Position numbers and translations under genes: made by a program
Assembly: GCA_019637435.1 (NCBI GenBank)
Contig: JAHBVO010000002.1
Coordinates: 657,519-721,518 of the forward strand
Source: Candidatus Obscuribacterales bacterium
GTDB taxonomy: Bacteria > Cyanobacteriota > Vampirovibrionia > Obscuribacterales > Obscuribacteraceae
Length of the DNA stretch: 64,000 nucleotides
Reading direction: 5' to 3'
Shown here: positions 44,795 to 63,962 of the stretch, in pieces
Position numbering within the stretch: the first letter of the stretch is position 1
Layout of the letters: every line of letters begins with the position of its first letter
Notes under the pieces: generated by a model
The model's input: the letters and a program-made list of their open reading frames with translations, nothing else
What the model was told of the DNA's origin: nothing
The model's database searches: none

Positions 44795-47392
44795 TTGAAG
44801 GTATCTAAGGAATCATCATTCAAGAAGTGGCGTTGTGCAATTGCCCTAATGGCTTGCGCAACGTCGCTTTTTGCGTGCTCCGATGTGCCGGCGCTTGGAG
44901 CGGATAAACCGAATTTGAGTTTAAAAATGCACACTGAATCTCCGAAAGAAATACTGCATCAGCTCGAGAGTTTTCGGCAGATGGGAAGCGTTCTCTATGT
45001 AGCGGCGCACCCGGACGACGAGAACACTGAGTTGCTGACTTATCTAGCGCGCGGCCGCAAATACCGCACTGCCTATTTGTCGCTCACTCGCGGAGATGGT
45101 GGGCAGAATGTGTTGGGCGCGGACTTGGGAGATAAACTTGGTCTGGCGCGAACTCAAGAACTTCTTGCTGCCAGGCAGATAGACGGCGCTCATCAGTTTT
45201 TCTCACGCGCAATTGATTTCGGTTTTTCGAAGAATTATCAGGAGACTCTTAGCGTTTGGGATAAACAAGAAATTCTTTCAGACGTTGTTCGAGTAATTCG
45301 TAAGTTTCGTCCGGATGTCGTTATTACTCGTTTTTCACCGAAGCCTGGTGGCACCCACGGACATCACACAACGTCAACAATTCTTGCGCAGGAAGCGTTT
45401 AAACTGGCTGGCGATCCGAAGGCGTTCCCTGAACAGAAGCTTGAACCCTGGCAGCCTAAGAGGATCTTCTGGAACTGCTCGATCTGGCAAAAGGACAAAA
45501 TAGGCGACGCTGAGATTTTGAAAATTGATGCGGGCGGAAAAGATTCGGTGACGGATGAGACGTATCATTCTCTTGCGAGAGCCAGTCGTGCAATGCACAA
45601 GACACAGGGATTCGATACTTTCCAATTCCCCGGCGACAAGAATGAGCAGCGCACCGAGCAGTTTCAATTACTCGATGGCGAGCCTGCTACGACCGACATC
45701 ATGGACGGTGTCATTACCAGCTGGAAACGTGTCGAAGGTGGCGATGCAATTGACAGGGAAATTGCGGATATCATCGGTCGATTTGATGTAATGAAACCGG
45801 CGAAAAGCGTGCCCGGAATACTGAAACTTCGCATAGCGCTGGACAAGCTGCCAAACAAAGACTCGATCGTCAACGAGAAGCGAGAGCAGCTTGATTTGAT
45901 ACTGCAAGAATGTCTCGGCTTGAAGACAGAGACAACTGTTTTCAACGCCGATGTTGTGCCCGGAGAGCAGATGAAATTGCACGGCTCTGCTGTGATCAAT
46001 TCTGATGCACCGAATGCGGTGAAGTGGATAGCGGTGAAGTATCCGCTGCTGAAGAAAGAAGTGATGCGAAATGTCGAGCTCAAGCCGTACGCCGCAAGTA
46101 CCTTCGAAGAGACGGAGACGATGCCGGAGCATGCGCCTTTGACGCAGCCGTACTGGCTTCGAGCGGAGGGAACGCCTGGTGTGTTTCATGTTGAAGAACA
46201 GGATTTAATAGGTACTCCTGAAAATGCGCCATCGTTTCCGATTGAAAACGTTTTTGAAATCGATGGACAGACGCTCGTCGTGCGAGATGAACCCGTACAG
46301 ATATCTACGGATGCTGCCGGAAATCAGATTCGTCGTCGGCTGGACATAATTCCTCCCGTATCCATGCGTTTCACCACTGAAGTAGCTATTATGAATCCGG
46401 GAGCTTCGAAATCTGTCGAGGTCGAGATTAAGGCGGCTCGCGGTGGCTCAAAGGGAAGTTTGAAGTTGGATGTGCCCTCTGGATGGAAAGTTGAGCCAGA
46501 TAAGCAAGCGTTCGACTTAGCTGATGTTGGTCAAGTGGGCCACTTTACGTTTAAACTCACCGCGCCGAACAAGCCTGGTTCTGCTCGCGTTCTGGCGGAA
46601 GCCGATATAAACGGTTTGAAGTATCACAATCAGCGTATCGAGATAAGCTATCCACACTTACCTCGTCAGTTGCTTCTGCCACCGACCGTAGTGAGAGCAG
46701 TTAGTCTGGATTTAAAAACGCTCGGCAAGTCAGTTGGTTATCTTCCTGGAGCCGGTGACAGTTTGGCCGAAAACCTTCAGCAAATGGGATATGCGGTAAA
46801 GATGCTTGATGATGCAAGCTTGACTGCTAAAGATCTTGAAGGACTCGATGCAGTCGTTCTTGGCGTGCGCGCCTTCAACGTACGGGTTAATATCGGTAAG
46901 GCGATGCCGGCTCTGATGTCGTATGTGGAAAATGGTGGCACGATGATTGTCCAATATAATCGCCCCGACCAGATGAAGACTGACAAAATCGCTCCGTTCG
47001 ATCTAAAAATTTCGCGAGATCGAGTCACTGACGAAAACGCGGCGATCACCTTTTTAGCGCCGGAAAGTCCGATTCTAAACACCCCAAACAAGCTGACTTC
47101 AGCTGACTTTGAAGGTTGGGTTCAGGAGCGGGGCCTGTATTTCCCGGACCGTTGGGACTCGCATTTCCTGCCGATTCTATCTTGCGCAGATCGAGATGAA
47201 GCGCCATCGAAAGGTGTTTTGCTTATCGCCCCTTATGGTAAAGGACACTACATCTATACAGGATTAAGTTTCTTCCGGCAGTTGCCTGCTGGAGTACCTG
47301 GCGCTTACAGGTTATTCGCGAATATGGTTTCGCTCAGCGCGGAAAGTTCATCAATCTCTGCGTCTACCCCGTCTAAAAATAATGAGCACTGA
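44795..47392 (+). CDS. Large PIG-L/LmbE-family deacetylase domain protein
   Basis: LmbE signature VAAHPDDENTELLTYLARGRKYRTAYLSLTRGDGGQN near the N-terminus, followed by about 600 aa more. The start codon is uncertain (TTG at 44795). Confidence 0.75.
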   Translation: MKVSKESSFKKWRCAIALMACATSLFACSDVPALGADKPNLSLKMHTESPKEILHQLESFRQMGSVLYVAAHPDDENTELLTYLARGRKYRTAYLSLTRGDGGQNVLGADLGDKLGLARTQELLAARQIDGAHQFFSRAIDFGFSKNYQETLSVWDKQEILSDVVRVIRKFRPDVVITRFSPKPGGTHGHHTTSTILAQEAFKLAGDPKAFPEQKLEPWQPKRIFWNCSIWQKDKIGDAEILKIDAGGKDSVTDETYHSLARASRAMHKTQGFDTFQFPGDKNEQRTEQFQLLDGEPATTDIMDGVITSWKRVEGGDAIDREIADIIGRFDVMKPAKSVPGILKLRIALDKLPNKDSIVNEKREQLDLILQECLGLKTETTVFNADVVPGEQMKLHGSAVINSDAPNAVKWIAVKYPLLKKEVMRNVELKPYAASTFEETETMPEHAPLTQPYWLRAEGTPGVFHVEEQDLIGTPENAPSFPIENVFEIDGQTLVVRDEPVQISTDAAGNQIRRRLDIIPPVSMRFTTEVAIMNPGASKSVEVEIKAARGGSKGSLKLDVPSGWKVEPDKQAFDLADVGQVGHFTFKLTAPNKPGSARVLAEADINGLKYHNQRIEISYPHLPRQLLLPPTVVRAVSLDLKTLGKSVGYLPGAGDSLAENLQQMGYAVKMLDDASLTAKDLEGLDAVVLGVRAFNVRVNIGKAMPALMSYVENGGTMIVQYNRPDQMKTDKIAPFDLKISRDRVTDENAAITFLAPESPILNTPNKLTSADFEGWVQERGLYFPDRWDSHFLPILSCADRDEAPSKGVLLIAPYGKGHYIYTGLSFFRQLPAGVPGAYRLFANMVSLSAESSSISASTPSKNNEH

Positions 47393-49399: not shown

Positions 49400-50184
49400 C
49401 ATCACCAATAATATGTTTTGGCCAACAACCCTGCGGTTTCTTTCCGAAGCGATTTCTTGTTGCGAAGATACAGACTGCGCGGCGTCTGCAAAAGGAGATC
49501 GGCGGCGAGGTCGTCTTCTTCTTCCATGACAGTGATCATGACCCGCGTGAAACGAAAACGATTTTGCGCCACAAGACCACTGACGAAGTAGCTCAGCTCA
49601 ATTTCACTTATGAGAATAAAACGCAGCGAAAATTTTCGCCTCTGTATTTGAAACGCATTCCCGCCGATTGGCAGGAGAAAACCGCTGCTCAGCTGCGTAA
49701 CTACGTTGATGCTTCGATGATTGAATTGTTTAGGAGCGTCAAAGCTGACACCGTAGCCGACTTCTGTCTGGAAATGTACCGCTCCATGGGTTTCCTCGAA
49801 GGAGTAAGAATAGTCAGGTCTAGCGACAAGGAGTTTCGGCGAGGCGCCTGTGACATTGATGATTTTTTTGTAGACGTAGCGGTGAATGGGAATAGTAAGT
49901 TAGACCCTGAAATCGTCCGCGCGCGCTTTGCGGACAATGTTCTAAAACTCCACGAGGGCGGAGATAAGTTTTTGGACCTGCCGATGATTGATTTTACGAA
50001 AGAGCAAATTAGTCCGTCGCGTGACAGCCGCCTGAAGTGGATGCAGTCTGTTCTTCACTGCACGCATTACATTGCCGGAGCGAGTGAGCAGGACTATCTG
50101 CGCAAAGAGGATGCGCCCGAAATAGAGTATATTACGCGTGATACCATTGACCGCTCGGAGGAGGCGCACATTGAGCTCAGCTAA
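49396..50184 (+). CDS. Short BshC-like protein (N-terminal Rossmann-like part of the putative bacillithiol cysteine ligase family)
   Basis: CFGQQPCGFFPKRFLVAKIQTARRLQKEIGGEVVFFFHDSDHDPRE parallels the B. subtilis BshC core GGQQAGLLTGPLYTIHK...LAK...VIPIFWVAGEDHDLDE. The start overlaps the symporter stop (ATGA). At 262 aa it is about half the ~540 aa of BshC. Confidence 0.5.
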   Translation: MTSPIICFGQQPCGFFPKRFLVAKIQTARRLQKEIGGEVVFFFHDSDHDPRETKTILRHKTTDEVAQLNFTYENKTQRKFSPLYLKRIPADWQEKTAAQLRNYVDASMIELFRSVKADTVADFCLEMYRSMGFLEGVRIVRSSDKEFRRGACDIDDFFVDVAVNGNSKLDPEIVRARFADNVLKLHEGGDKFLDLPMIDFTKEQISPSRDSRLKWMQSVLHCTHYIAGASEQDYLRKEDAPEIEYITRDTIDRSEEAHIELS

Positions 50185-50887
50185 TTCTGTCTTGATCTTC
50201 GGAGCGCATCCGGACGATATTGAATTCGGTTGCGGTGGAGTCATTAAGATTGAAACAAAGAATGGTCGGAAGGCTCACTTCGTCGTGACCTCTAAAGGCG
50301 AGGCCGGTACCAGCGGAACGCCGGAAACCCGTGTTGCGGAATCTAAAAAAGCGGCCGAGATTCTTGGCGCAACCATTGAGTTCATCGAGTTCGAGGGGGA
50401 CTCTCATCTTGAAATGAAGGTCGAGCATACGATAAAGCTAGCTGAGATCATTCGACGCGAGCAACCATCGACCGTGCTTGCTCCTACGTGCGTGGAGAAT
50501 CAACATCCGGATCATGCTCGCTTGGGTAAACTGGTGCGAGACGCGGCTCGCCTTGCTCGATACGGAGGTCTGAAGGAGCTTCTGGCATTGAAGGCTCATG
50601 CGATCGAACAATTGCTGTTTTACGCAGTGACACCGGAAGCGGTGCCACGTGATGTTACGTCGATTTTGATAGATATTTCCGAACCTGATGTCCTGAACGC
50701 CTGGACCGATGCGATGAAGGCTCATGCTTCTCAAGCTTCCACTCGCAACTATCTTGAGATGCAGTTGACTCGCGCCAGACTCCTTGGAGCGCAGGCGGGT
50801 CTAGAGCACGCTATCGCGCTTTACCCTAACGACCCTCTCATATTCGATTCGCTTTCTCAAACCGGTAAAGGAGCGCGACGTTTTTAA
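50138..50887 (+). CDS. bshB: PIG-L family deacetylase, BshB-like (GlcNAc-malate deacetylase)
   Basis: VLIFGAHPDDIEFGCGG and ENQHPDHARLG are zinc-ligand motifs of the LmbE/BshB family. It sits immediately upstream of bshA. The start may be the TTG at 50171. Confidence 0.75.
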   Translation: MIPLTARRRRTLSSANSVLIFGAHPDDIEFGCGGVIKIETKNGRKAHFVVTSKGEAGTSGTPETRVAESKKAAEILGATIEFIEFEGDSHLEMKVEHTIKLAEIIRREQPSTVLAPTCVENQHPDHARLGKLVRDAARLARYGGLKELLALKAHAIEQLLFYAVTPEAVPRDVTSILIDISEPDVLNAWTDAMKAHASQASTRNYLEMQLTRARLLGAQAGLEHAIALYPNDPLIFDSLSQTGKGARRF

Positions 50888-50888
50888 C

Positions 50889-52070
50889 ATGACCCCCAGG
50901 AATCCATTGAAAATTGGCATCAGCTGTTATCCGTCGGTCGGCGGAAGCGGTGTGATTGCGACGACGCTTGGAATTGAGCTTGCTCAGCGTGGACACGAAG
51001 TGCACTTCATCAGTTATGAGCGACCATTTCGTCTGCCGGAGAACGCTCCGAGAATTCACTTTCATCAGGTTGTAATTAACAGCTACGGTCTTTTCAAATA
51101 TCCCGACTACACCCTGCCGCTGTCTGTGGAGATGGCGCGCGTGAGTTGCGTGCACGACCTCGATATCATGCATGTGCATTACGCTGTTCCTCACGCCACA
51201 GCAGCTATTCTTGCGCGGTGCATGTTGCCGCAGGATAAACAGCCGAAGGTTGTCACCACGCTGCACGGCACCGACACTACGCTGCTCGGTGCAGACCCTG
51301 GTTATGGACCGGCTATTCATCACGCTCTTACGCAATCGGATGCGGTTACTAACGTATCATCATTTTTGGAAGCGGAAACTCAGCGCGTGATTGGATACAA
51401 AGGAGCGATGCAAGTAATTTATAACTTCTTCGAGCCGAAACAGCCGTTACGGACTCGCGAAGATGTACGCCGAGAGCTGGGCGTCGGTGACGAGGTGCTG
51501 ATTTTGCACTCGTCGAATTTGCGCCCTATGAAGCGGGTCGATATGCTTTTGGAAACAGTCTCTCGCATTCAACCACGCGATAAAGTCAAACTCCTGATTC
51601 TTGCTGGAGCAGATTTCAAGCCGTTTAGCGACGATGTAAGCCGGCTTGGTTTGGCGGACAGTATTATCGTACGCGAGAACGTACTCGACATCGAAGAGTA
51701 TTTGCAAGCCGCTGACCTCTCGCTGTATACATCGGAAAGCGAAAGTTTTTGCTTGAGTATTTTGGAAGCGATGTTCTTCGGCTGCCCAAGCGTCGCCACT
51801 AATGTCGGTGGCATCCCAGAGGTTGTGGAGAACGGTGTTGACGGTTTGCTCGTGCCGTTTGGAGATGTTGATGGCTTAGCTCGCGAAGTCCAGCGCTTAG
51901 TTGATGATGTTGATGAGCGGAAAAAATTAGGTGCAGCTGCCCTCGCGAACGCGCGCAAACGATTTTCTGCTGATGCTATTATTCCGCAATATGAGGATCT
52001 CTATTGGGCGTTGCTGCGGAAACCGCCTGTGGCTGCTGGAAGTGCGGTCGTTTCTTGTTCAGACGAGTAA
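50889..52070 (+). CDS. bshA: N-acetyl-alpha-D-glucosaminyl L-malate synthase BshA (GT4 glycosyltransferase)
   Basis: LKIGISCYPSVGGSGVIATTLGIELAQRGHEVHFIS...FKYPDYTLPL...HVHYAVPHA...VTTLHGTDTTLLG closely parallels B. subtilis BshA. C-terminal ESESFCLSILEAMFFGCP..GGIPEVV. Confidence 0.85.
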   Translation: MTPRNPLKIGISCYPSVGGSGVIATTLGIELAQRGHEVHFISYERPFRLPENAPRIHFHQVVINSYGLFKYPDYTLPLSVEMARVSCVHDLDIMHVHYAVPHATAAILARCMLPQDKQPKVVTTLHGTDTTLLGADPGYGPAIHHALTQSDAVTNVSSFLEAETQRVIGYKGAMQVIYNFFEPKQPLRTREDVRRELGVGDEVLILHSSNLRPMKRVDMLLETVSRIQPRDKVKLLILAGADFKPFSDDVSRLGLADSIIVRENVLDIEEYLQAADLSLYTSESESFCLSILEAMFFGCPSVATNVGGIPEVVENGVDGLLVPFGDVDGLAREVQRLVDDVDERKKLGAAALANARKRFSADAIIPQYEDLYWALLRKPPVAAGSAVVSCSDE

Positions 52071-52936: not shown

Positions 52937-54862
52937 TTAACGCGCCGATAAGCGAGATTTGAAACGCCCTTGCGTGCTTCCGGAATGTCGTCTGCCGTCC
53001 GCAGATGGTCTGCCGAAAGAAGGCTTGCCATCTTGGTTTTGACGCGGACCGCGACCGAATTTGTCACGGCGGTGATCACCGTTTGAAGGCTTGTCACCGT
53101 AGCGAGGTTTTTCGCCATAACGTGGTTTGTCACCGTTTGAAGGCTTGTCGCCGTAGCGAGGTTTTTCGCCGTAACGTGGTTTGTCACCGTTTGAAGGCTT
53201 GTCACCGTAGCGAGGTTTTTCACCGTAACGTGGTTTGTCACCGTTTGAAGGCTTGTCACCGTAGCGAGGTTTTTCGCCGTAACGTGGTTTATCACCGTTT
53301 GAAGGCTTGTCACCGTAGCGAGGTTTTTCACCGTAACGTGGTTTATCACCGTTTGAAGGCTTGTCACCGTAGCGAGGTTTTTCACCGTAACGTGGTTTGT
53401 CACCGTTCGACGGCTTGTCGCCATATCGAGCTCTTTCTCCGTAACGCGGCTTGTCTTTGAATGAACGTGCTGCACCACCAGTGGTTCGCTGTCCATTGCC
53501 TCGACCGCCGCTTTCGCGATTCTTCGTTCCGAATGCATTTCGCTCGTCTTCATCGAAACTGCGCTCCGCACGTACTGCTTCAGTGCGAACAGTTTTCGTA
53601 ACTTGAACAACTTCAACTGGCATTTCGCCAACTGCCGCGTCGTCGCCTTTCGCCAGATCTCCACCTTCACCGTGACGACCGGATCTATTGATCTTCCGCT
53701 GCTTTCTCGCTTTGCGTCTCTTCGAGTTCCCTTCGCCGGGCTCTGGCGTAGGTGCTTCACCGACCATCTCCATTTTTCTTCCCGTGACTTTCTCGATATC
53801 ACGGACGAGGTGGCGTTGCTCACGGCTCACGAACGAAAGCGCGATACCTGAACGACCAGCGCGACCGGTTCTACCAATACGGTGTACGAAGTCCGGTGCC
53901 GAATCCGGCAAGTCGTAGTTAATTACGTGACTGATTGAAGGAATATCTAACCCTCTTGCCGCAACGTCGGTTGCTACAAGAACGGAGAACTCGCCACTTC
54001 TATAGCGTTTCAACGTGGCATCGCGCTTGTTTTGCGAAACATCTCCGTGTATTTCTTCCGCCACCACATCCGATGCCGTTAAAAACTTTCGGACTCTTTT
54101 GACTCGGCCGCGAGTTCTTGCAAACACAATTACCGAATCGACTTCCGGTTTGTCTTTGATGAGCTCAATAAGGAGATTGTTCTTCTCGTCTTCGGTTACG
54201 TGGTAAGCCCGTTGCTCGATTGCGATCGGCTCCAAACGTTCGGTGTTTACAGCTACGCGAACGGGATCGGTTAGAAAGACTGCAGCAGTTTGCTCGATCT
54301 TCTTGTCGATGGTTGCTGAGAACATCAGCGTTTGCTCGCGGCTTTGCAGATATTTGACGATTTGCTTGACCTGAGGCATGAAGCCCATATCTAGCATTCT
54401 ATCCGCTTCGTCGAGTACGAGGGTTTTCACATTCGATAAGTCGACATTGTTCCGTTTAATGTGGTCGAACAGGCGTCCGGGAGTTGCAACTATGACATCA
54501 ACGCCGCGCTTGAGCAGGCGAGTCTGTTTGTCATAACCGGTGCCACCGTATATGGTGACGCTGCGCATGCCGCAACCGTTTGCGAAACGGTCGAACTCTG
54601 TTTGTACCTGAACGGCTAGCTCGCGAGTCGGCACTAAAACCAGAACGCGCGGCAGTTTTTCCGAGTTATTCTTGATGAACTGTAAGATTGGAACAGCGTA
54701 CGCCGCGGTCTTGCCGGAGCCGGTCTCCGCTGACGCCATCAAGTCCTGGCCAGCGAGAACGACCGGGATAGTCTTCTCTTGTATCTCCGTGGGCTCGACA
54801 AAGCCGATTTTTTCCAAGGCGCCGGTGGCTCGCTTGGACAACCCAAGATCACTAAAATTCAT
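52937..54862 (-). CDS. DEAD-box ATP-dependent RNA helicase with a repetitive basic C-terminal tail
   Basis: Q-motif region FSDLGLS..GFVEPTEIQ, AETGSGKT, PTRELA, DEAD (LVLDEADRMLD), SAT and HRIGRTGRAG. The tail is (RYGDKPSNGDKPRYGEKP)x6. Start taken at the Met at 54862. Confidence 0.9.
   Translation of the reverse strand: MNFSDLGLSKRATGALEKIGFVEPTEIQEKTIPVVLAGQDLMASAETGSGKTAAYAVPILQFIKNNSEKLPRVLVLVPTRELAVQVQTEFDRFANGCGMRSVTIYGGTGYDKQTRLLKRGVDVIVATPGRLFDHIKRNNVDLSNVKTLVLDEADRMLDMGFMPQVKQIVKYLQSREQTLMFSATIDKKIEQTAAVFLTDPVRVAVNTERLEPIAIEQRAYHVTEDEKNNLLIELIKDKPEVDSVIVFARTRGRVKRVRKFLTASDVVAEEIHGDVSQNKRDATLKRYRSGEFSVLVATDVAARGLDIPSISHVINYDLPDSAPDFVHRIGRTGRAGRSGIALSFVSREQRHLVRDIEKVTGRKMEMVGEAPTPEPGEGNSKRRKARKQRKINRSGRHGEGGDLAKGDDAAVGEMPVEVVQVTKTVRTEAVRAERSFDEDERNAFGTKNRESGGRGNGQRTTGGAARSFKDKPRYGERARYGDKPSNGDKPRYGEKPRYGDKPSNGDKPRYGEKPRYGDKPSNGDKPRYGEKPRYGDKPSNGDKPRYGEKPRYGDKPSNGDKPRYGEKPRYGDKPSNGDKPRYGEKPRYGDKPSNGDHRRDKFGRGPRQNQDGKPSFGRPSADGRRHSGSTQGRFKSRLSAR
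53081..53458. repeat. 54-bp tandem repeat, 6 near-identical copies plus a degenerate seventh, within the helicase C-terminus
   Basis: Units start at 53081, 53135, 53189, 53243, 53297 and 53351. Unit sequence is gtttgaaggcttgtcaccgtagcgaggtttttcgccgtaacgtggtttgtcacc. Confidence 0.9.
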
Positions 54863-55107
54863 TGTTGATTCCTTTGTGTGCGTCTGCTGGTGCGCTTTGA
54901 CTGTCAGTTCCAAGTCCAAAAATTGACCAGCCTGACTCAGACTTGCCGCCTAGTATGGCATACCGGCTCATGACATGTGGGGGATTGTGAAGTTATGCGC
55001 GTGAGAAGATAGTCAGGAGCGATGGTACTGAGTCTCTGAGCCAGTCTTGGAGAAGACAAGAAGCTGTTTTCTTCGCCGGAGATGTCTTGTGAAACCGGCA
55101 TCGCGCA

Positions 55108-55651: not shown

Positions 55652-57634
55652 ATGAATCCCTCCCTGATCTCTTCTCTTTGTTTGACAACCGCCCTAATGG
55701 CATTGCCAACATTGTTCTTCAGGAAGGCGAATAGCGTCGCTCTCTCTCTTCTGACGTTGATGTTCTCTCTTTTGCTCAGCGCTCTGGTAGTTGCCACAGC
55801 CATCGATGCGCGCTGGGCCGCCCCCGCGTGGCTGTCGGTCGGCTCTTTTCCGATGACGTTCCAGCTCGATAACTTGTCGGTTGCCTTCATCTTGCTACTC
55901 ACGGTACTGGCTTCAGCTGTGGCTCTTTTCTCGCCTGGATATTTGAAACACTTTGACGAAACCGTCAATCGCGGCTTGTACTGGGCTTCTTTCCTTGTCT
56001 TCGTATCCTCGATGGCGCTCGTGGTGTTAAGTGCCGATGCTGTGACTTTCCTGGTCTTCTGGGAGCTGATGTCGATATCTTCCGGCGCACTGGTCGCCAC
56101 TAATCATCAGAACCACAGCGTCCAAAAAGCATCGCTGATATATCTGGGAGCGACCAGGGTCGCTACCGGTTTTCTCGCGGGTGGTTTTCTCTGGATGCAT
56201 TCGCTTACGAACAGTTGGGCTTTTCAAGATTGGCACTTCATCACAAATGCGAGCGCTCAACTTGGTGCCTCAACAAGTGGTGCACATTTTGCCGCTTTTC
56301 TGATTTTTATCGGATTCGCCATCAAAGCTGGCATCTGGCCCTTCCACTTATGGTTGCCCTACGCTTACCCGGCTGCTCCATGCACGGTGTCATCTCTAAT
56401 GAGTGCCGTGAGCAAAATTGCGTTGTATGGACTTATCCGCATTCTTGTTCTTGGCGATCTCGATTCCCCGATTTTAGGTTATCTCGCTATTTTTCTTGGA
56501 ACCATCTCTGCCTTCTGGGGGGTCTTATTCGCGCTTATCCAAACTGATTTGAAGAAAACTCTGGCGTACTCGAGTGTCGAAAATGTAGGACTTATCCTGC
56601 TTGCGATAGGCGTTTGCCTGGTCGCAAAGACGAACGGTTTATTGTCGGTAGCTGCGATTGCGCTTTCCGCTGGTTTGTTTCATGCCATCGGACATGGCGT
56701 ATTCAAAGCCTTGATGTTCTTAGGTGTTGGCACCGTTCAATGCGCTACGCATACATCGCGTATCGGGCACCTCGGCGGTCTATTGAAAAAAATGCCTACA
56801 ACCTCCACTTGTTTCCTAGTAGGTGCTATGGCTATTTGTGCGTTGCCGCCGCTAAACGGTTTTATGGGCAAATGGATGCTGTATCAGTCTTTGATGCAGA
56901 ATACGTGGCTTTCAGGTTCGCCGGTCGGAGCCGGCGTCTCGCTGAGCGTCATTTGCGTGTTAGCTCTCGTTGGAGGTCTGTCTATCGCCTGTTTTGCAAA
57001 TGCATTTTCTGTCTCATTCCTGGGTGAACCGCGCTCCTCATCCGCTGCGCGTGCCTTCGAGGGAGATATTGGAAGCAGTTGCGCTCAGGTCTTTCTTGCC
57101 GCTCTATGTCTCGCGCTCGGCTTGTTTGCTGTGCCCGTCATAGGATTTCTGAAACCGATATGTGATGCGGCCTTGCATTCGGACACCACCGTCGCAGCGA
57201 CGATTCACTTCTCTCTCTCGTCGGTACTTATTGTTTTTACTTCGCTTTTCGCTTTGATATATCTTCTAATTTTGAAACCTTCCAAGGTGCGGCGCGGGAT
57301 TATCTGGGAGTGTGGTTTCGGAAGTGTTTCTGCCAGGGCGCAGGTAACTGCGGACTCGTTCGCGCAGCCAATTGCACGCATCTTTAACAAACTGCTGAGT
57401 TACAGCGTTACCTGCGAAATCGAGGGCAGTGACAGGCGCCACTTCCCGGAGCGAATAACCGTCGCACCGCATACGGCATCACATATCGAGCGCCGGATTT
57501 ACCAGCCCTTTTTGAAACTTATTTCGTTCATCGCACGCTCGCTGGCTAAGTTGCAGTCCGGAAGTATTCATCTTTATCTCGTATACCTCTGCGTGACGCT
57601 GATTGCGCTCTTGATTGTCGGAAGGAGTTTCTAA
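55652..57634 (+). CDS. HyfB/NuoL-like antiporter-type membrane subunit of a group-4 hydrogenase-related (Ehr-type) complex
   Basis: 660-aa polytopic protein with the PF00361-like core (FWELMSISS, GFAIKAGIWPFHLWLPYAYPAAP, LAYSSVENVG). First gene of a tightly packed six-gene operon. Confidence 0.8.
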   Translation: MNPSLISSLCLTTALMALPTLFFRKANSVALSLLTLMFSLLLSALVVATAIDARWAAPAWLSVGSFPMTFQLDNLSVAFILLLTVLASAVALFSPGYLKHFDETVNRGLYWASFLVFVSSMALVVLSADAVTFLVFWELMSISSGALVATNHQNHSVQKASLIYLGATRVATGFLAGGFLWMHSLTNSWAFQDWHFITNASAQLGASTSGAHFAAFLIFIGFAIKAGIWPFHLWLPYAYPAAPCTVSSLMSAVSKIALYGLIRILVLGDLDSPILGYLAIFLGTISAFWGVLFALIQTDLKKTLAYSSVENVGLILLAIGVCLVAKTNGLLSVAAIALSAGLFHAIGHGVFKALMFLGVGTVQCATHTSRIGHLGGLLKKMPTTSTCFLVGAMAICALPPLNGFMGKWMLYQSLMQNTWLSGSPVGAGVSLSVICVLALVGGLSIACFANAFSVSFLGEPRSSSAARAFEGDIGSSCAQVFLAALCLALGLFAVPVIGFLKPICDAALHSDTTVAATIHFSLSSVLIVFTSLFALIYLLILKPSKVRRGIIWECGFGSVSARAQVTADSFAQPIARIFNKLLSYSVTCEIEGSDRRHFPERITVAPHTASHIERRIYQPFLKLISFIARSLAKLQSGSIHLYLVYLCVTLIALLIVGRSF

Positions 57635-57636
57635 CG

Positions 57637-58605
57637 ATGTGGCAATCAATGTCGACGGAGACATTTTTATTTGAAACCGCACGATGGATCCTATTTGCCG
57701 TAATCACTTTTGTTATGCCGATCTTGACGATCGGTGTTGTTAGGAAAACCAGAGCTCGAATGCAAGGGCGGATGGGCGCGCCCCTTTTGCAGGCGCTTTT
57801 CGACCTTCGCAAGTTGATGCAGAAAAGTGAAGCAGTAAGTTCCACGGCAACGTGGATATTCCGCTCCGGCGCGGGTATTGAACTGGCAAATATGCTTTTA
57901 CTTTCCACTCTTGTTCCCTGGATCGCGAATAAGCCGGATGGTGTGAGCAGCGATTTGTTTCTCATCGTTTATCTCTTTGCGCTCAGCCGATTGTTTGCAA
58001 TCCTTGCAGCGTTAGACTCCGGCTCGCCTTTCGGTGCCTTCGGAAGCAGCAGGGATGCGACGTTAGCCATGCTTGTTGAACCCGCTTCACTTCTCGCTCT
58101 TGTCTCCCTTGCAGTCGTCGCCAAGTCAACCGAGATGAATGTGATTTTCTCATTGACAAACGTTTTACTGGCGCACGATCCGGGTCTGTGGTTTCTCGCC
58201 GGCACCGCAATTGTGATGGCTAGTCTGGTTGAGCTATCGCGCATGCCGGTTGACGATCCTGCAACTCACCTGGAGTTGACGATGATTCACGAGGCGATGC
58301 TCCTCGAAAGTTCCGGTCGAAATCTCGCCCTTCGTGAGTTCACCAGAGCGCTCAAGATGACTGTGTTGTTCGGACTTTCCGCCCAGTGTTATCTGCGCGC
58401 CTGGGATGATTTCTGGCATTTTCCAGTTGTGGCGCAGGTCTGGCTAAGTATTGGTGGCATTCTCGGACTCGCTCTGCTAGTGGGTCTGTTCGAGAGTGTC
58501 TCGGTGAAGCTTCAGTGGCGTAAAGTGCCTGAATTCATATCTTACTGCATGACGCTCAGCTTACTAGCCGCAATGGTGGCAGTGGCTCGGGGGGTAGTAC
58601 ATTGA
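57637..58605 (+). CDS. HyfC/HycD/NuoH-like membrane subunit
   Basis: 322 aa. RKTRARMQGRMGAPLLQALFDLRKLMQK resembles the NuoH/HycD N-terminal signature. SD aggag. Confidence 0.75.
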   Translation: MWQSMSTETFLFETARWILFAVITFVMPILTIGVVRKTRARMQGRMGAPLLQALFDLRKLMQKSEAVSSTATWIFRSGAGIELANMLLLSTLVPWIANKPDGVSSDLFLIVYLFALSRLFAILAALDSGSPFGAFGSSRDATLAMLVEPASLLALVSLAVVAKSTEMNVIFSLTNVLLAHDPGLWFLAGTAIVMASLVELSRMPVDDPATHLELTMIHEAMLLESSGRNLALREFTRALKMTVLFGLSAQCYLRAWDDFWHFPVVAQVWLSIGGILGLALLVGLFESVSVKLQWRKVPEFISYCMTLSLLAAMVAVARGVVH

Positions 58606-59252
58606 GTTTCACGCCTGCGGAATGGAGTTTGATTGCATCGGCGACTGTCGCGATTTTGATGGTCGGCTCGTTGCATGTGCGAGTAAATCTTTTCGGCTAT
58701 TGTGTCCTAACCGTGCTGATTTCGCTTGCTACCATGTTCTCAGCCATCGATCATCACGAAACCTCCATGTTCTACCTTGCTGGCGCGATAGCTCTTCTAA
58801 AAGGAATATCAATTCCGTTGTTTTTGTACTGGATCATCGGTAAGTTAAAGCTTGGTAGCGATAGTGGTGCTGTCCTCTCTGCACCACTGGCGATGCACTT
58901 GAATATCGGTCTCACTATCATGAGTTATTTCCTCGTCTCGGAATTTCCTGTTCCTTTAGGTGAGTTGCGAACATGGGTCGGCGCTATGGCGGCTATCTCT
59001 ATGGTTTTGACAGGAATCGTGTTAATGCTTATTCGGCGATTGGCAATCAGTCAGATCATCGGATTTCTCGTGTTGGAAAATGGAATTTATATTTTTGCTC
59101 TCACCCAAACACGCGGAATGCCGCTAATCATAGAGATGGGGGTGGTGCTTGATGTGCTGGTCGGGGTAATGATTGCAGGTCTATTGATGTTTCGAATTCA
59201 GAGCAGTTTTGAGCACATAGACGTGTCGAAGCTAACCGATTTGAGAGATTAG
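58602..59252 (+). CDS. HyfE-like small membrane subunit
   Basis: 216-aa polytopic ORF with the position and size of hydrogenase-4 component E. Its start overlaps the upstream stop. Confidence 0.6.
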   Translation: MSFTPAEWSLIASATVAILMVGSLHVRVNLFGYCVLTVLISLATMFSAIDHHETSMFYLAGAIALLKGISIPLFLYWIIGKLKLGSDSGAVLSAPLAMHLNIGLTIMSYFLVSEFPVPLGELRTWVGAMAAISMVLTGIVLMLIRRLAISQIIGFLVLENGIYIFALTQTRGMPLIIEMGVVLDVLVGVMIAGLLMFRIQSSFEHIDVSKLTDLRD

Positions 59253-59256
59253 ACAA

Positions 59257-60690
59257 ATGGAAACCATCGGCTTCATCAGTTTAACTCCATGCTTGATCGT
59301 CCTGACGGTGTTGTTGGTGCGGCACAAACCGTTTGTACGATTTGTCTTGCCTATCTTATTTTGGATACAGCTAGCGGCCGTGGTTTACGTTGTGGCGCCT
59401 CTGTTTCAGCGAAATGCTGTTTCACTCGCTCTGACTCCCGATTTCAAAATTGATTCTCTTGGCTCTCTATTCATGACCTTGACTGCGTTCGTCACTGCTT
59501 GCGCAATGTCTCATGCAAGAGTATTTTTTGAAGTGGAAGACGCGCGCGCTGGAGAGTCATATCAGTTTGAACATGAGCGCATCTTTTACGCATGCGCGGC
59601 GCTGTTTTTGCTCGCAATGAATTTCGTGTTCATCTCCGATAATCTAGGATTTCTCTGGATCAGTATAGAAGCGACCACACTCTCGTCGGCTGCCTTGATC
59701 TATTACGGACGAACAAAACATACTCTGGAAGCGACGTGGAAGTATCTCGTCGTTTGTTCCGTCGGAATCGCATTTGCATTGTTTGGCACTATTCTTCTCT
59801 TTGCTTCCAGCCAGCATGGTGCGATCGAGCATGGGTCACTGAATCTGAGCGAACTGACGGCACATGCTGACGCTTTGGAGTTTCGCTTGCTCCGGCTTGG
59901 ATATATTTTCTGTCTGGTCGGTTATGGTACCAAAGCTGGTGTCTTTCCGCTTCATAGCTGGTTGCCTGATGCGCATTCGGAAGCGCCGGCCCCAGCGTCA
60001 GCGATTCTTTCCGGCGCGCTACTCAACTGTGCTCTCTTCGCAATCTGGCGTTTGTCGCAACTTGTCAGCGCCGCGCATCATGAGGCTCTCGCAACTAATT
60101 TGCCGTTGGCGCTTGGAACCGTCACCGCTCTGGCAGCAAGTTTCTTCCTGATTCACCAACATGGTATAAAGCGATTGTGGGCTTACTCGAGTATTGAGAA
60201 TGTCGGCATAATGCTGGTTGCAATTGGTTTGAGCAGCGGACCTCTATTTTTCTTGCAGGCGCTCAACCACAGTATTGCCAAAGTTGCTCTGTTTCTTTTA
60301 GCCGGAAACATCATCCAATCTGCGGGAACCAAAAATCTTGCAGACATCCGGGGATTACTACAATCTGCGCCATCGTGGGCGGTGCTATTTGCCGTCGCTG
60401 CTCTTGCCGTGACGGGAGCTCCCCCGAGTGGCGCCTTCCTCAGCGAACTGCTTATACTCCTTCAAGCGATGGATCAGAAACGGTTTATTGTTGTAATCTC
60501 ATTGATAGTCGCTTTGAGCATCAGTTTCATCGCTGTATCCGTGCACGTTTGCAGAATTCTCTTTGGTTCGGAAAAATCGAATTTTGCAAAGCTTAAACCG
60601 TTTTCTACCAGTATAGTTCCGGCTCTGCTTGTCGCCCTTTCGCTACTATGCGGTGTGACTGCTCTTCCTATATTATTGTCTAAGCCATGA
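59257..60690 (+). CDS. HyfF/NuoM/NuoN-like antiporter-type membrane subunit
   Basis: 477 aa with the PF00361-like core (GYGTKAGVFPLHSWLPDAHSEAPAPASAILSG, WAYSSIENVG). Confidence 0.8.
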   Translation: METIGFISLTPCLIVLTVLLVRHKPFVRFVLPILFWIQLAAVVYVVAPLFQRNAVSLALTPDFKIDSLGSLFMTLTAFVTACAMSHARVFFEVEDARAGESYQFEHERIFYACAALFLLAMNFVFISDNLGFLWISIEATTLSSAALIYYGRTKHTLEATWKYLVVCSVGIAFALFGTILLFASSQHGAIEHGSLNLSELTAHADALEFRLLRLGYIFCLVGYGTKAGVFPLHSWLPDAHSEAPAPASAILSGALLNCALFAIWRLSQLVSAAHHEALATNLPLALGTVTALAASFFLIHQHGIKRLWAYSSIENVGIMLVAIGLSSGPLFFLQALNHSIAKVALFLLAGNIIQSAGTKNLADIRGLLQSAPSWAVLFAVAALAVTGAPPSGAFLSELLILLQAMDQKRFIVVISLIVALSISFIAVSVHVCRILFGSEKSNFAKLKPFSTSIVPALLVALSLLCGVTALPILLSKP

Positions 60691-62201
60691 TTGAAAACGC
60701 GCACATAGTTAGAATCAACGTCGACGGTCAAGAGCGGATGACCCGTTTGAAAACCATGCTGCACGTGCCTGGAAATCGTCTTGGATTGATAACTTCGATT
60801 GATGGCTCCCAGCTTGTGACTTTGCTTCTCGATACTAACACCGGTCGAAGCACAGTGTGGGAGACTCCCCTATCATCCGACGTCTATCCTTCTCTAACTA
60901 TGATGATTCCGCAGTGCCACTGGTTTGAGCGGTCCACATGGGACATGTTCGGTTTGAAGCCGAATGGCCATCCTCGTTTAAAACACAATCTGCTCCATGA
61001 ACCTTATGACGCATCGCTCTTTCCGCTGAAGACAGACCATGAAGTTGAGTCTCATGATACAGACCGTTTCTATAAGTGTCTGGAAGTCCGCGGGCAGGGT
61101 GTTTACGAAATTCCGGTCGGTCCTATCCATGCCGGCATCATAGAGCCAGGTCACTTCAGATTCAGTTGTCTGGGAGAAGTGATACTGAACCTCGAGATTC
61201 GACTCGGATATGTTCATCGCGGTGTTGAAAAGCGAATTGTCGAAGTACCGCTCAGTCGAATGCGATTCGTCGCTGAATCGGCTGCTGGGGACATGATCGC
61301 GGCGAATGCCCTTGCTCACGCTGTGGCGGTGGAATCTTGTTTACAGATCGAAGAGTCTCCACGTGCCCGTGCTTTCAGAACAATTTCTCTGGAACTGGAG
61401 CGCATCGCCATGCATGTGAGCGATCTGGGAGGTCTTGCCGGTGATATCGGATTTGCTGCTGTTAGCACTTCGATGGCGATCCTTCGCGGCGATGTTCTCG
61501 GATGCGCTGAACTCCTTACTGGAACCAGATTTCAGAAGGGCTTTATTGCTCCTGGTGGCATATCACGAGAGCCGTCGGACAAAAATTTGTCCCAGCTACG
61601 AACGAATTTGAAAAAGATTCAACTGAAGTTAAAACCGATTGTAGACTTTCTGTTTTCGAATCAGGTCGCTCGCGATCGAATGACCAACGTTGGCATTTTG
61701 ACTCCAAAACTAGCAGCAGACTTCGGGGTAGTCGGTGTGGCCGGCCGAGCTAGTGGTATTGCCTATGATGCCCGAAAGTCATTTGTCCATGGCTGTTTTC
61801 CCCGGCAAAATATGGTGCTTCCGGTGCAGCAGGCTGGAGATGTTTTAAGTCGCGCCAAAGTTCGCGCTGAAGAATTGCGAAGTAGTCTTGAAATAATTTA
61901 TGAAATTTTGGAGACCTTGCCCGGGGGAGATACTGCTGGTGCCCATCACGACCTTCGCTCTCTGAATCGGTTTAAGTTTAAGACAAATGATTGCGGAATA
62001 GGTATTGTCGAGTCTTTTCGCGGCGAACTGATTCATCTGTTCTTCACCGACGGCGATGGCAAGATTATTCGATATGCAATAAAAGATCCCAGTGTGAACA
62101 ATTGGACTGCGTTGGCTATCGCTGTTAGAAACAATTTGCTGTCCGACTTTCCTCTCTGCAACAAGAGTTTTGGTCTGTCATACAGCGGTCATGATTTGTG
62201 A
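60687..62201 (+). CDS. HycE/HyfG-like fused NuoC-NuoD 'large subunit' homologue lacking NiFe-binding cysteines
   Basis: NuoC-like HWFERSTWDMFGLKPNGHP. VGPIHAGIIEPGHFRF..RLGYVHRGVEKR aligns with E. coli HycE IGPLHVTSDEPGHFRL..FYVHRGMEKL. Where HycE has DRVCGICGFAH this ORF has ESAAGDMIAAN, and the C-terminal DPCYSCTDR is GLSYSGHDL. Confidence 0.8.
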   Translation: MIENAHIVRINVDGQERMTRLKTMLHVPGNRLGLITSIDGSQLVTLLLDTNTGRSTVWETPLSSDVYPSLTMMIPQCHWFERSTWDMFGLKPNGHPRLKHNLLHEPYDASLFPLKTDHEVESHDTDRFYKCLEVRGQGVYEIPVGPIHAGIIEPGHFRFSCLGEVILNLEIRLGYVHRGVEKRIVEVPLSRMRFVAESAAGDMIAANALAHAVAVESCLQIEESPRARAFRTISLELERIAMHVSDLGGLAGDIGFAAVSTSMAILRGDVLGCAELLTGTRFQKGFIAPGGISREPSDKNLSQLRTNLKKIQLKLKPIVDFLFSNQVARDRMTNVGILTPKLAADFGVVGVAGRASGIAYDARKSFVHGCFPRQNMVLPVQQAGDVLSRAKVRAEELRSSLEIIYEILETLPGGDTAGAHHDLRSLNRFKFKTNDCGIGIVESFRGELIHLFFTDGDGKIIRYAIKDPSVNNWTALAIAVRNNLLSDFPLCNKSFGLSYSGHDL

Positions 62202-62209
62202 GGTTCTAG

Positions 62210-63127
62210 ATGATTAGACTCTTGAATTATCTGATCACGAGGAAAATCGCCACGTCCAAAGCACTTTTCGCACCACTTGGTGATGGCGTGCGTGGTTTGC
62301 CCATGCTTACAGGCGAGTCGATTTCTGAAGCTGAGGCAGTCGAGTTGGCGGAAGGTTGCCCGGCTGGGGCGATTCGTGTGCTGGAGAAGGAGGATGGTCG
62401 CCAAGTATTGGAGATGGACCGTGGAGCCTGCACAACATGCGGTTTTTGCCTGGATGTTTATCCAACTGCTGCGATAAAAAGCGATCCTAACACCATGATT
62501 GCAACTCGCAAACGCGATCAACTTATTTCGAGCGTGGCTTTGAATGATACTTCCCTAGATACTGCATCTGGTGTCGCAGGTGATACTGCTTGTAAGACTG
62601 CATCTGGTGTCAAAACCGATACTGCAGGCGGTGTACATGAGTTTTTTGAAGCCGCCGACAACTTGCCACAAGACGCCATTGAGTCGGATCTCGCTCGGGA
62701 AAATTTGATTTCGAAAATTTTCGGGCGCTCAATTGCAATCAGAGTGGTCTCAACCGGATGTAGTTCCTGTGACCTCGAGATTGGAGCCGCAGGCAATCCA
62801 ATCTTCGACATGGAGCGATTCGGAATGCATGTCGTAGCGTCCCCGCGTTTCGCCGATGTCTTATTGGTTACCGGACCTGTGCCGAAAGCGATGCACGAGC
62901 CATTGAGGCTTTGCTATGAGGCGATGTCGGAACCTCGGCTTGTGGTCGCAGTTGGAAGCTGTGCGATTTCAGGAGGCGTGCTCAAAGACAGCTACGCGCA
63001 AGCTAATGGAGTCGGGGCGGTATTACCGGTCGACGTTTTCATCCCGGGGTGTCCTCCCCATCCTTGGAGCATAATTGACGGCATCGCCATGGCTATGGGG
63101 CGAAAGCGTCAGGGGCGCCTAAAGTAG
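62210..63127 (+). CDS. Fusion of a degenerate ferredoxin (HycF/NuoI-like) module to a HycG/NuoB-like small subunit
   Basis: The N-terminus has GCPAGAI and CTTCGFCLDVYP. The C-terminus has NuoB-type ligand motifs GCSSCDLE, GSCAISGG and GCPPHP. The linker contains TASGV/DTA repeats. Confidence 0.75.
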   Translation: MIRLLNYLITRKIATSKALFAPLGDGVRGLPMLTGESISEAEAVELAEGCPAGAIRVLEKEDGRQVLEMDRGACTTCGFCLDVYPTAAIKSDPNTMIATRKRDQLISSVALNDTSLDTASGVAGDTACKTASGVKTDTAGGVHEFFEAADNLPQDAIESDLARENLISKIFGRSIAIRVVSTGCSSCDLEIGAAGNPIFDMERFGMHVVASPRFADVLLVTGPVPKAMHEPLRLCYEAMSEPRLVVAVGSCAISGGVLKDSYAQANGVGAVLPVDVFIPGCPPHPWSIIDGIAMAMGRKRQGRLK

Positions 63128-63311
63128 GTGTGGATTGTTAAAACCTGTAATTGCATAATTGCGCAAGCGGTTTGATTCAGCTTAGAATGGCTATCAAATG
63201 AGTCAGATTTTCGGGGCAGTTTTCTTTTAGACGCCAGGTTTGAACTATCTGAAATCGGCGGCGTGTGCCAAGATCATTCTGTGTCTCAACATTTTTCAAA
63301 CGGTCGATCGC

Positions 63312-63962
63312 ATGACAATGAACATTCCTCCGCCTCTAAGGGGCGATGAAAAGTATCGTGATTTGCTAATTCACATAGAGTCGATTCCGGATGTGCCGGT
63401 TCAGTGGAAGGGCACGCCTATTGAGTCGTTTATCATGGCACAGAACTTTGGCTGGCCTATTCAGGGCTCTGGCAAGGTCGAACTGCTCATCTCTACATGT
63501 ATCGAGTTTCGATACGCACTGCCAATCCCGCGAATGTACGCTTATGTAATTCGTAGAGCCAGCGGGCGCGTTCTCGGCTCTGAGTTTAGCGTTGGTTACA
63601 CGATGGCGCAAGGCGTTAAGTATCTCGCATTGATTGGTCATAACGATTGCGGTATGGCGAAGGCGCTCACCAATGCACCACGAGTGGTGGCGGCTCTTGT
63701 CGAGCAAGGCTGGGATGCCGACCTCGCGCAGCAGTACGTTGAAAATCAGCTAAAGCGTCACGCGATCAACGATGAGCTGGATGCGCTCCGCGAAGAGTTT
63801 ATTCGATTAAAACGTGTTTTTCGGAAACTGTTGATTGCGCCACTGTTCGTTTGTCTTCATGACAGTAAATTATATGTTCCTGCTTGGTATGACAGTTTGA
63901 ACACGGAGCTTGATGCCGAAGAGCCGAACGCGCCTCGAGATCTTATCGAAAATTTGCTGTAG
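63312..63962 (+). CDS. Beta-carbonic-anhydrase-like protein
   Basis: STCIEFRY (CxExR in place of CxDxR), YVIRRASGRV (compare FVxRNAGNxV) and LALIGHNDCGM (HxxCG) occur in the order and spacing of beta-class carbonic anhydrases. Start taken at the ATG at 63312. Confidence 0.5.
   Translation: MTMNIPPPLRGDEKYRDLLIHIESIPDVPVQWKGTPIESFIMAQNFGWPIQGSGKVELLISTCIEFRYALPIPRMYAYVIRRASGRVLGSEFSVGYTMAQGVKYLALIGHNDCGMAKALTNAPRVVAALVEQGWDADLAQQYVENQLKRHAINDELDALREEFIRLKRVFRKLLIAPLFVCLHDSKLYVPAWYDSLNTELDAEEPNAPRDLIENLL

Follow-up and report, generated by a model that had tools for sequence, protein, structure and literature searches.

The 64,000-nucleotide stretch of DNA analysed here (the window; Candidatus Obscuribacterales bacterium, contig JAHBVO010000002.1, positions 657,519 to 721,518 of the forward strand) contains, at 55652-63127, a compact operon of six genes on one strand, all with intact reading frames, whose products resemble subunits of hydrogenase-4 and of complex I (Table 1). 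The subject of this analysis is the product of the fifth gene, a homolog of group 4 [NiFe]-hydrogenase large subunits that lacks all four cysteine ligands of the NiFe site and very probably serves as the large subunit (EhrL) in an energy-converting hydrogenase-related (Ehr) complex of the Hyf type, encoded by six genes, in Obscuribacterales. The Ehr family is defined by the absence of the NiFe ligands and has been found in Melainabacteria (PMC6349859), and the same loss of ligands has been described in bacteria of the Candidate Phyla Radiation (CPR) (PMC7304191).

The open reading frame (ORF) at 60687-62201 (+) encodes 504 amino acids followed by a stop codon and ends in NKSFGLSYSGHDL. It carries the Pfam domains Complex1_30kDa (PF00329, residues 30-122) and Complex1_49kDa (PF00346, residues 253-497) and is therefore a NuoC-NuoD fusion of the HycE type. 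Its top sequence match in the PDB, found with phmmer, is Escherichia coli HycE (7z0s_E, E = 2.7e-55, query residues 62-500), followed by MbhL (3e-38), MbsL and NuoD/Nqo4. The first-pass annotation, which aligned the ORF to HycE by eye, had proposed that all four NiFe ligands are replaced while the flanking family signatures persist. The boundaries of the ORF and every quoted string (VAESAAGDMIAANALAH, SFGLSYSGHDL with the following stop, GPIHAGIIEPGHFRF, LGYVHRGVEK and HWFERSTWDMFG) were found as given, and the numbering of the HycE ligands as C241, C244, C531 and C534 is correct on the translated hycE gene of strain MG1655. The substitutions themselves are borne out by two independent alignments, the phmmer pairwise alignment and one of 82 large subunits that was made with MAFFT L-INS-i and includes HycE, HyfG and NuoCD, which agree that C241 corresponds to A200, C244 to M203, C531 to S498 and C534 to G501. 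None of the eight cysteines of the ORF (positions 77, 131, 161, 218, 273, 370, 436 and 491) lies on or beside any ligand column, so that the protein does not display the four cysteines expected of a functional group 4 [NiFe]-hydrogenase (L1 RxCGxCxxxH, L2 DPCxxCxxH/R). The C-terminal extension that is cleaved by HycI is likewise missing from the protein. A true C-terminus hidden by a frameshift was considered and rejected: both other downstream frames are closed, and the next gene begins 9 nt past the stop. The loss of all four NiFe-ligand cysteines is thus confirmed, and these observations rule the complex out as a standard [NiFe]-hydrogenase.

Table 1. Features of the operon and its immediate flanks in the window, and large-subunit positions that set the cysteine-free clade apart from Cys-bearing hydrogenases
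Feature	Position	Strand	Evidence or remarks
ArsR/SmtB-family helix-turn-helix regulator, 105 aa	55108-55425	-	Divergent; Pfam HTH_5 1.1e-12; NCBIfam HTH_metalloreg 3.8e-26
HyfB/NuoL-type antiporter-like subunit	55652-57634	+	Pfam Proton_antipo_N, Proton_antipo_M 3e-57; NCBIfam hydrogenase 4 subunit B 3.7e-149, under family cutoff
HycD/HyfC/NuoH-like membrane subunit	57637-58605	+	Pfam NADHdh 1.9e-32; aligned with HycD, HyfC, NuoH
HyfE-like small membrane subunit	58602-59252	+	NCBIfam hydrogenase 4 membrane subunit 7.7e-17, under family cutoff; in 73 related loci
HyfF/NuoN-type antiporter-like subunit	59257-60690	+	Pfam Proton_antipo_M 9.2e-50; NCBIfam hydrogenase 4 subunit F 1.4e-97
Large subunit, NuoC+NuoD/HycE-type, no NiFe ligands (very probably EhrL)	60687-62201	+	Fifth operon gene
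L1 motif remnant, residues 195-212	61269-61322	+	VAESAAGDMIAANALAHA; A200 and M203 in place of Cys; D202 invariant in cysteine-free clade
L2 motif remnant, residues 494-504	62166-62201	+	SFGLSYSGHDL, then stop; S498 and G501 in place of Cys
D202	61290-61292 (codon)		100% in cysteine-free clade; A/V/I in Cys-bearing; between the two former L1 Cys
S498			100% in cysteine-free clade; Cys in Cys-bearing hydrogenases
G501			100% in cysteine-free clade; Cys in Cys-bearing hydrogenases
D253			97% in cysteine-free clade; Gly or Phe in Cys-bearing hydrogenases
D467			94% in cysteine-free clade; Ser or Ala in Cys-bearing hydrogenases
L504			90% in cysteine-free clade; Arg in Cys-bearing hydrogenases
Fused HycF/NuoI-like + HycG/NuoB-like Fe-S subunit, 305 aa	62210-63127	+	Pfam Oxidored_q6 2.5e-30, Fer4_7
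Divergent beta-carbonic-anhydrase-like protein, 214 aa	63318-63962	+	C61-x-E63-x-R65 and H108-x-x-C111-G conserved in the family

The replacement of the ligands is a property of the whole family. The four ligand columns lack cysteine in all 120 nearest database homologs (50-100% identity), the source-named members of which come from Obscuribacterales, Melainabacteria or "Cyanobacteria bacterium", and 119 of these proteins reach the nearly invariant terminus DFPLCNKSF.LSYSG[HN]D[LVM], the remaining one being a fragment. To gather more distant relatives, one genome per species was scanned, which returned 80 related loci (designated below by L-numbers, such as L084, which are our labels), about 70 of them with the same gene order, and the large subunit was extracted from each. 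Seventy-two of these proteins are cysteine-free and seven possess all four cysteines (ERICGACS...ELCYACLDR). The latter come from Sporomusa, Thermincola, Ectobacillus and other Bacillota, and together with HycE and HyfG they make up the nine Cys-bearing sequences of the alignment, all of which have Cys at the four columns. The cysteine-free sequences span about 15 phyla and originate from Obscuribacterales, Gastranaerophilales, Armatimonadota, Ignavibacteria/Bacteroidota, Planctomycetota, Acidobacteriota, Nitrospira, Spirochaetota, Desulfovibrionaceae, Elusimicrobia, CPR/Patescibacteria and others. At the four columns they carry [ASCT], [TSMAN], S and G, and because S498 and G501 are fully conserved and position 200 admits only A, S, C or T (n = 72), the pattern of substitution is not due to chance.

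In a neighbor-joining tree of the 82 sequences, with NuoCD as the outgroup, the cysteine-free sequences, including those of Nitrospira, CPR and Gastranaerophilales, are monophyletic; their sister is the Cys-bearing clade of Sporomusa, Thermincola and Ectobacillus, and HycE and HyfG fall outside both. The ORF accordingly descends from group 4 [NiFe]-hydrogenase large subunits. Given that the cysteine-free sequences form a single clade sister to Cys-bearing relatives, the loss of the cysteines appears to be ancient and is most simply explained by a single event. The large subunit of L042 (JAJPJO010000219.1, labelled "Proteobacteria bacterium") is 61% identical to that of the window, and its operon, ArsR gene and both types of carbonic-anhydrase-like genes (see below) fall within the Obscuribacterales subclade, which could reflect mis-binning of the contig or a transfer of the locus.

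Strong purifying selection acts on the gene. Between the ORF and relatives that are 81-82% identical at the protein level, pN is about 0.10 and pS about 0.78, which is saturated; dN/dS was therefore computed only for other pairs, and amounts to 0.07-0.09 where dS could be estimated (0.09 between the two relatives just mentioned). Moreover, 65 residues are conserved throughout the cysteine-free family and common to its Cys-bearing relatives. The earlier view that this is a maintained protein and not a pseudogene is upheld by this selection and conservation. The fold is retained as well: an AlphaFold2 model of EhrL built from 25 homologs has a predicted TM-score (pTM) of 0.84, and a Foldseek search with it gave HycE as the top structural match (TM-score 0.81), followed by NuoCD of E. 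coli and Aquifex.

Comparison of the 72 cysteine-free sequences with the nine Cys-bearing ones yielded a small set of clade-specific positions (Table 1). One of these is D202, an invariant residue gained by the cysteine-free clade within the former L1 motif and thus a signature residue of the clade. The headgroup of the quinone in complex I is liganded by Tyr87 and His38 (Thermus thermophilus Nqo4 numbering). Tyr87, which is the Tyr of RIEYLGG in NuoCD, corresponds in EhrL to G201 in the MAFFT alignment and, transitively, via HycE, or to D202 in the phmmer alignment, and His38 aligns with I152. The partner of His38, Asp139, aligns with D253, although an Asp is found at this position also in MbhL, a true hydrogenase. 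For its beta1-beta2 loop, EhrL has the hydrogenase type (GPIHAGIIEPGHFRF), as does HycE. Judged from these alignments, the pocket qualifies neither as a NiFe site nor as a canonical quinone site, and it has gained in acidity. The first-pass annotation had named quinone, or nothing, as the possible occupant; the former suggestion is weakened because the Tyr and His ligands of NuoD are absent. One NuoD-like feature, the equivalence of D253 and Asp139, is present.

The partner of EhrL, the fused iron-sulfur (Fe-S) subunit, was analysed with cysteine tables and alignments with relatives and HycF/HyfH. Its NuoB-like domain keeps the N2-type site (C184 and C187, in a hydrogenase-type CxxC, C251 and C281), and its HycF-like domain keeps one complete [4Fe-4S] site (C50 of a CP motif, C74, C77 and C80). 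The other ferredoxin-type cluster has lost all four of its ligands (residues ~30-84; C1-C3 of motif 1, and C4 of motif 2, which is replaced by Y84); by homology to NuoI and HycF, we take the lost cluster to be the surface-distal one. The closest relatives, L084, L086 and L087, have one of the three motif-1 cysteines left; all eight are still in place in the Obscuribacter type and in the majority of other relatives. Independent losses of the distal site occurred in Acidobacteriota, some Gastranaerophilales and other groups. The N2-type ligands are kept in 60 of the 69 relatives, and all or most of them are gone in eight of the 69: all four are replaced in L015, L018, L019 and L020 (DSSD, DSSH, DAAG), and three of the four in the CPR loci L053, L060, L061 and L063 (DCDD, DCGD). 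These N2-less lineages have a cysteine-free large subunit, and the remainder of their NuoB fold is highly conserved. Loss of Fe-S clusters across the family is thus mosaic and repeated. In the linker between its HycF-like and HycG-like domains, the window protein also has some 40 inserted residues of low complexity (DTSLDTASGVAGDTACKTASGVKTDTAGGV..., at ~62546-62690), which are missing from close relatives.

In the membrane arm, both antiporter-like subunits keep the conserved charged residues of E. coli HyfB, HyfD and HyfF: E138, K225, H232, K301 and K352 in the HyfB-like subunit, and E138, K226, H233, K305 and K342 in the HyfF-like subunit. We take these to be, in the order HyfB-like/HyfF-like, the Glu of transmembrane helix (TM) 5 (E138/E138), the Lys of TM7 (K225/K226), the conserved His (H232/H233), the Lys of TM8 (K301/K305) and the Lys of TM12 (K352/K342). 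As far as the sequences tell, the ion-translocation machinery looks intact.

For the genomic neighborhood of the operon, about 1,370 ORFs from 88 loci were clustered, and 143 directly flanking genes were scanned against Pfam. ArsR homologs lie within ~10 kb of 14 related operons, usually directly adjoining them, in Obscuribacterales, Acidobacteriota, Armatimonadota, Planctomycetota and Ectobacillus; the ArsR regulator of the window has one Cys and no obvious metal-site motif. A protein combining a helix-turn-helix and a PTS_EIIA_2 domain is encoded directly 5' of the operon in 19 loci. A scan of 54.9-64 kb for promoters and terminators gave counts at or below those expected from shuffled sequence. 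A survey of part of the window (16-52 kb), of a 10-kb extension and of the genes that flank related loci revealed neither NuoEFG nor formate dehydrogenase genes, and no Hyp maturation or endopeptidase genes were seen among the ORFs examined in the 64-kb window and the 10-kb extension.

Downstream of the operon, the gene for the 214-aa protein follows the Fe-S gene after 190 nt (63128-63317). This protein has no match in Pfam, PF00484 included, and PDB searches with the single sequence gave only sub-threshold matches, so that a family profile was needed: a profile of 28 sequences matches the beta-carbonic anhydrase (CA) Cab (1g5c, 1.5e-5), with C61, H108 and C111 falling on the zinc ligands. 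Throughout the family, C61, R65, H108 and C111 do not vary, and Glu (E63) stands in place of the catalytic Asp; many of the homologs are named "carbonic anhydrase" by JGI. The family has about 200 members and apparently ranges over Obscuribacterales-type genomes only. Its gene adjoins the Ehr operon in eight of the ten genomes examined, in at least four arrangements, and is not adjacent in the other two. A second CA-like type, of about 200 aa, occurs in nine loci (PF00484 1.5e-7 in L002); its gene, the product of which has C-S-E-M-D ... H-Y-P-C, lies between those for the Fe-S and 214-aa proteins in the closest relatives, L084 (11137-11745) and L086 (9927-10529) and is lacking in the window. 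Linkage to CA-like genes is confined to one subclade of Obscuribacterales and was not seen in L006-L012. SulP/SLC26 transporters (PF00916 and STAS) are encoded within 10 kb of the operon in 18 loci, which represent at least four lineages (e.g., L022:2525-4917, L008:6662-8332, L054, L068 and L066), one Cys-bearing locus among them; in L014, the SulP gene is directly followed by a gene for a PF00484 carbonic anhydrase. No Pfam match to DabA (PF10070) or to CupA/CupB was obtained among the neighbor proteins scanned. Among the papers searched, none connects Ehr with carbonic anhydrase, SulP or bicarbonate; the one related statement is a passing remark that a hyfBCEFG cluster of Acidithiobacillus caldus adjoins a beta-CA gene (PMC3826726).

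Other genes of the window deserve a brief mention. The protein encoded at 52937-54919 (-), 660 aa long, has DEAD-box RNA-helicase motifs recognizable by eye, and its C-terminus (near 52940-53400) carries an 18-residue repeat (DKPRYGEKPRYGDKPSNG), about six times in tandem, which also yields long spurious ORFs in other frames. The 1,764-aa ORF at 35283-40577 (+) matches nothing in Pfam at E <= 0.001. On the forward strand, genes for two PIG-L-type deacetylases and one GT4 glycosyltransferase lie near one another (44795-47392, 50138-50887 and 50889-52070), an arrangement reminiscent of thiol biosynthesis of the bacillithiol/mycothiol type (BshB-BshA).

The features of the operon are those of the Ehr family. 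The large subunit is homologous to those of group 4 and to NuoD, lacks the L1 and L2 cysteines and belongs to the cysteine-free clade, and it is accompanied by NuoB-like, NuoH-like and antiporter-like genes without NuoEFG. The ORF is therefore an ordinary Ehr member, and both the observation and its first interpretation are already in the literature. Known Ehr complexes, including those of Melainabacteria, Margulisbacteria, CPR and Nitrospira, share with the window the group-4-like large subunit without L1/L2 CxxC, the NuoL/M/N-, NuoH- and HyfE-like membrane subunits and the NuoB-like small subunit, and the lack of NuoEFG. The window complex differs from them in that its HycF-like and HycG-like proteins are fused and the distal [4Fe-4S] cluster is lost, in that its subclade is linked to beta-CA-like genes and to ArsR, and in that the partner suggested for Margulisbacteria and Saganbacteria, formate dehydrogenase/NuoEF (PMC6349859), is lacking. 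Ehr of Nitrospira has been placed near group 4f (PMC10284858, PMC12542776), and because the literature puts Ehr close to this group (PMC10284858), the Cys-bearing sister clade of Sporomusa, Thermincola and Ectobacillus probably represents group 4f. With this clade the window shares the six-gene Hyf-type order, the fused NuoC-NuoD (36-39% identity) and the unusual C-terminal signature DFPL.NKSF.L.Y...., without a maturation extension, whereas the four cysteines of its ERICGACS...ELCYACLDR are A, M, S and G in the window, with an Asp between the L1 positions.

E. coli hydrogenases-4 and -3 (HyfG, HycE; formate hydrogenlyase 7Z0S) are the closest solved structure both in sequence and in fold, and equivalents of HyfB, C, E, F, G and H/I are all present in the window operon. 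The window protein, however, has neither the NiFe ligands nor the 32-residue tail that HycI removes, and the operon contains no genes for HyfA/HycB, HyfD, FdhF, HycH or HycI. With NuoCD/Nqo4 of complex I, the complex shares the NuoC-NuoD fusion, the lack of NiFe ligands, the equivalent of Nqo4 D139 and an N2-type cluster in the partner subunit; it differs in the absence of Tyr87 and His38, in the hydrogenase-type beta1-beta2 loop and the CxxC proximal motif, in the absence of NuoEFG, NuoA and NuoJ from the operon and its flanks, and in its greater distance in the tree. The placement of the complex between group 4 hydrogenases and complex I, as the first-pass annotation had it, agrees conceptually with the published view of Ehr (PMC4758237, PMC6349859), but in the tree the protein sits inside group 4 and not on the NuoD branch. 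A later paper (PMC4758237) credits Marreiros et al. 2013 with the idea that Ehr are intermediate between hydrogenases and complex I.

Two further systems are instructive. The MBS/MBX complex of Pyrococcus is a respiratory complex derived from group 4 that has lost the production of H2. Its sequence match to the ORF (6U8Y, 2.6e-34) is weaker than those of HycE and MbhL, its membrane module is of the multi-subunit Mrp type as opposed to the Hyf-type arm seen here, and MBS is not known to be linked to the Ehr clade. NDH-1MS (with CupA) and DabAB, which are vectorial CO2-hydration systems (PMC6981117, PMC13144422), could offer a likeness of mechanism, not of membership, in that PF00361 antiporter-like subunits are genetically coupled to a CA-like protein with a zinc site. 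The proteins found here differ from CupA/DabA (PF10070) in being small, divergent and beta-CA-like, and their linkage to the operon is restricted to one subclade.

What, then, might the complex do? From the absence of both the NiFe site and the NuoD-type Tyr and His, we infer that it neither makes nor oxidises H2, nor binds quinone in the manner of complex I. The mechanism that we prefer, and put forward tentatively, is that a soluble low-potential donor, e.g., a ferredoxin, would pass electrons through a short wire of two clusters to an acceptor in the remodelled acidic pocket (D202, D253, E197), and that turnover of the acceptor would drive translocation of H+ or Na+ through the Hyf-type membrane arm. 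In the Obscuribacterales subclade, this activity is probably tied to the handling of CO2/bicarbonate or of pH, because the beta-CA-like genes travel with the operon. Several observations weigh against this scheme. The electron acceptor cannot be named from the evidence, and no recurrent redox partner (formate dehydrogenase, NuoEF or HycB/HyfA) was found in the 88 loci and 143 flanking genes. The distal HycF site is wholly lost in the window and eroded in its closest relatives, and since the N2 ligands are replaced in sister lineages and in CPR, delivery of electrons to the pocket is not universal in the family. The elements of the pocket (residues 126-174 and 483-504) have a predicted local distance difference test score (pLDDT) below 50 in the AlphaFold2 model, which was therefore used for fold assignment only. 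Finally, the tree is distance-based and includes as curated references only E. coli HycE, HyfG and NuoCD, and no HydDB sequences.

The main alternative is that the complex is not an oxidoreductase at all. The hydrogenase arm would then be repurposed or structural, and an ion gradient would power CO2/bicarbonate or pH handling together with the beta-CA-like proteins, or with SulP elsewhere, by analogy perhaps with NDH-1MS/CupA, with the vectorial CO2 hydration of DabAB or with Mrp-type cation/proton antiporters. We consider this rather unlikely for the complex of the window, even though the mosaic loss of Fe-S ligands, the lack of a linked redox partner, the linkage to both types of CA-like genes and to SulP, the acidic residues gained in the former metal pocket and the A. 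caldus remark (PMC3826726) all point in this direction. Eight Fe-S cysteines remain in the window, and the N2-type site persists in most of the family; the CA linkage is limited to one subclade and fails even in two of the ten genomes with the 214-aa protein; SulP also carries sulfate and other anions; and the CA-like proteins, in which the catalytic Asp is a Glu, are not homologous to CupA or DabA. Gene neighborhood alone is a weak guide, and phylogenetic independence of the related loci is not given. The broader proposition, that the whole Ehr family is a non-redox, ion-gradient-driven machine for energised CO2/bicarbonate or pH homeostasis with the dedicated CA-like proteins in this lineage or SulP in other phyla as partners, and thus an independent counterpart of NDH-1MS/CupA and DabAB, strikes us as unlikely. 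A complex-I-like ferredoxin:quinone oxidoreductase, with menaquinone in the former NiFe pocket, is improbable. It would make sense of D253, the counterpart of the key quinone-site residue Asp139, of the retained N2-type cluster and NuoH-like subunit, and of the proposal (PMC4758237) that Ehr are intermediates toward complex I; yet G201/D202 and I152 occupy the places of Tyr87 and His38, the beta1-beta2 loop is that of a hydrogenase, the proximal cluster is bound by CxxC and not by the tandem CC of NuoB, and the equivalent of D253 is shared with MbhL.

Two further readings can be given little credence. That the operon is a decaying, non-functional remnant might be suggested by the lost Fe-S site and by the CA-like gene that is missing downstream in comparison with the closest relatives, but this is very improbable in view of the six intact reading frames, the purifying selection, the 65 shared conserved residues and the intact proton-path residues of the membrane subunits. 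In addition, every Ehr subunit has been detected as protein in Geobacter sulfurreducens, most abundantly on formate (PMC7894505). A hydrogenase or another metalloenzyme that binds its metal through non-Cys or displaced ligands, such as the conserved polar residues E197, D202, H502/N502 and D503, which could in principle do so, or else an artefact of alignment or sequencing, is hardly conceivable: the two alignments agree and place no Cys on or beside the ligand columns, the same substitutions recur in more than 190 independent assemblies, and neither the invariant Gly501 nor the Ala200 of most nearest homologs can bind metal. We know of no [NiFe]-hydrogenase with non-thiolate ligation.

The absence of the NiFe ligands restates the defining property of Ehr and by itself changes little in the understanding of this family, a very large one with members in many phyla. 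The gain of an Asp in the L1 motif, the mosaic loss of Fe-S clusters without a redox partner, and the linkage to CA-like and SulP genes narrow the range of hypotheses on its function in ways that can be tested. If the inorganic-carbon/pH reading were true, Ehr would be the third independent complex-I-type module to drive the hydration of CO2, and this case would reside in a non-photosynthetic sister lineage of the Cyanobacteria.

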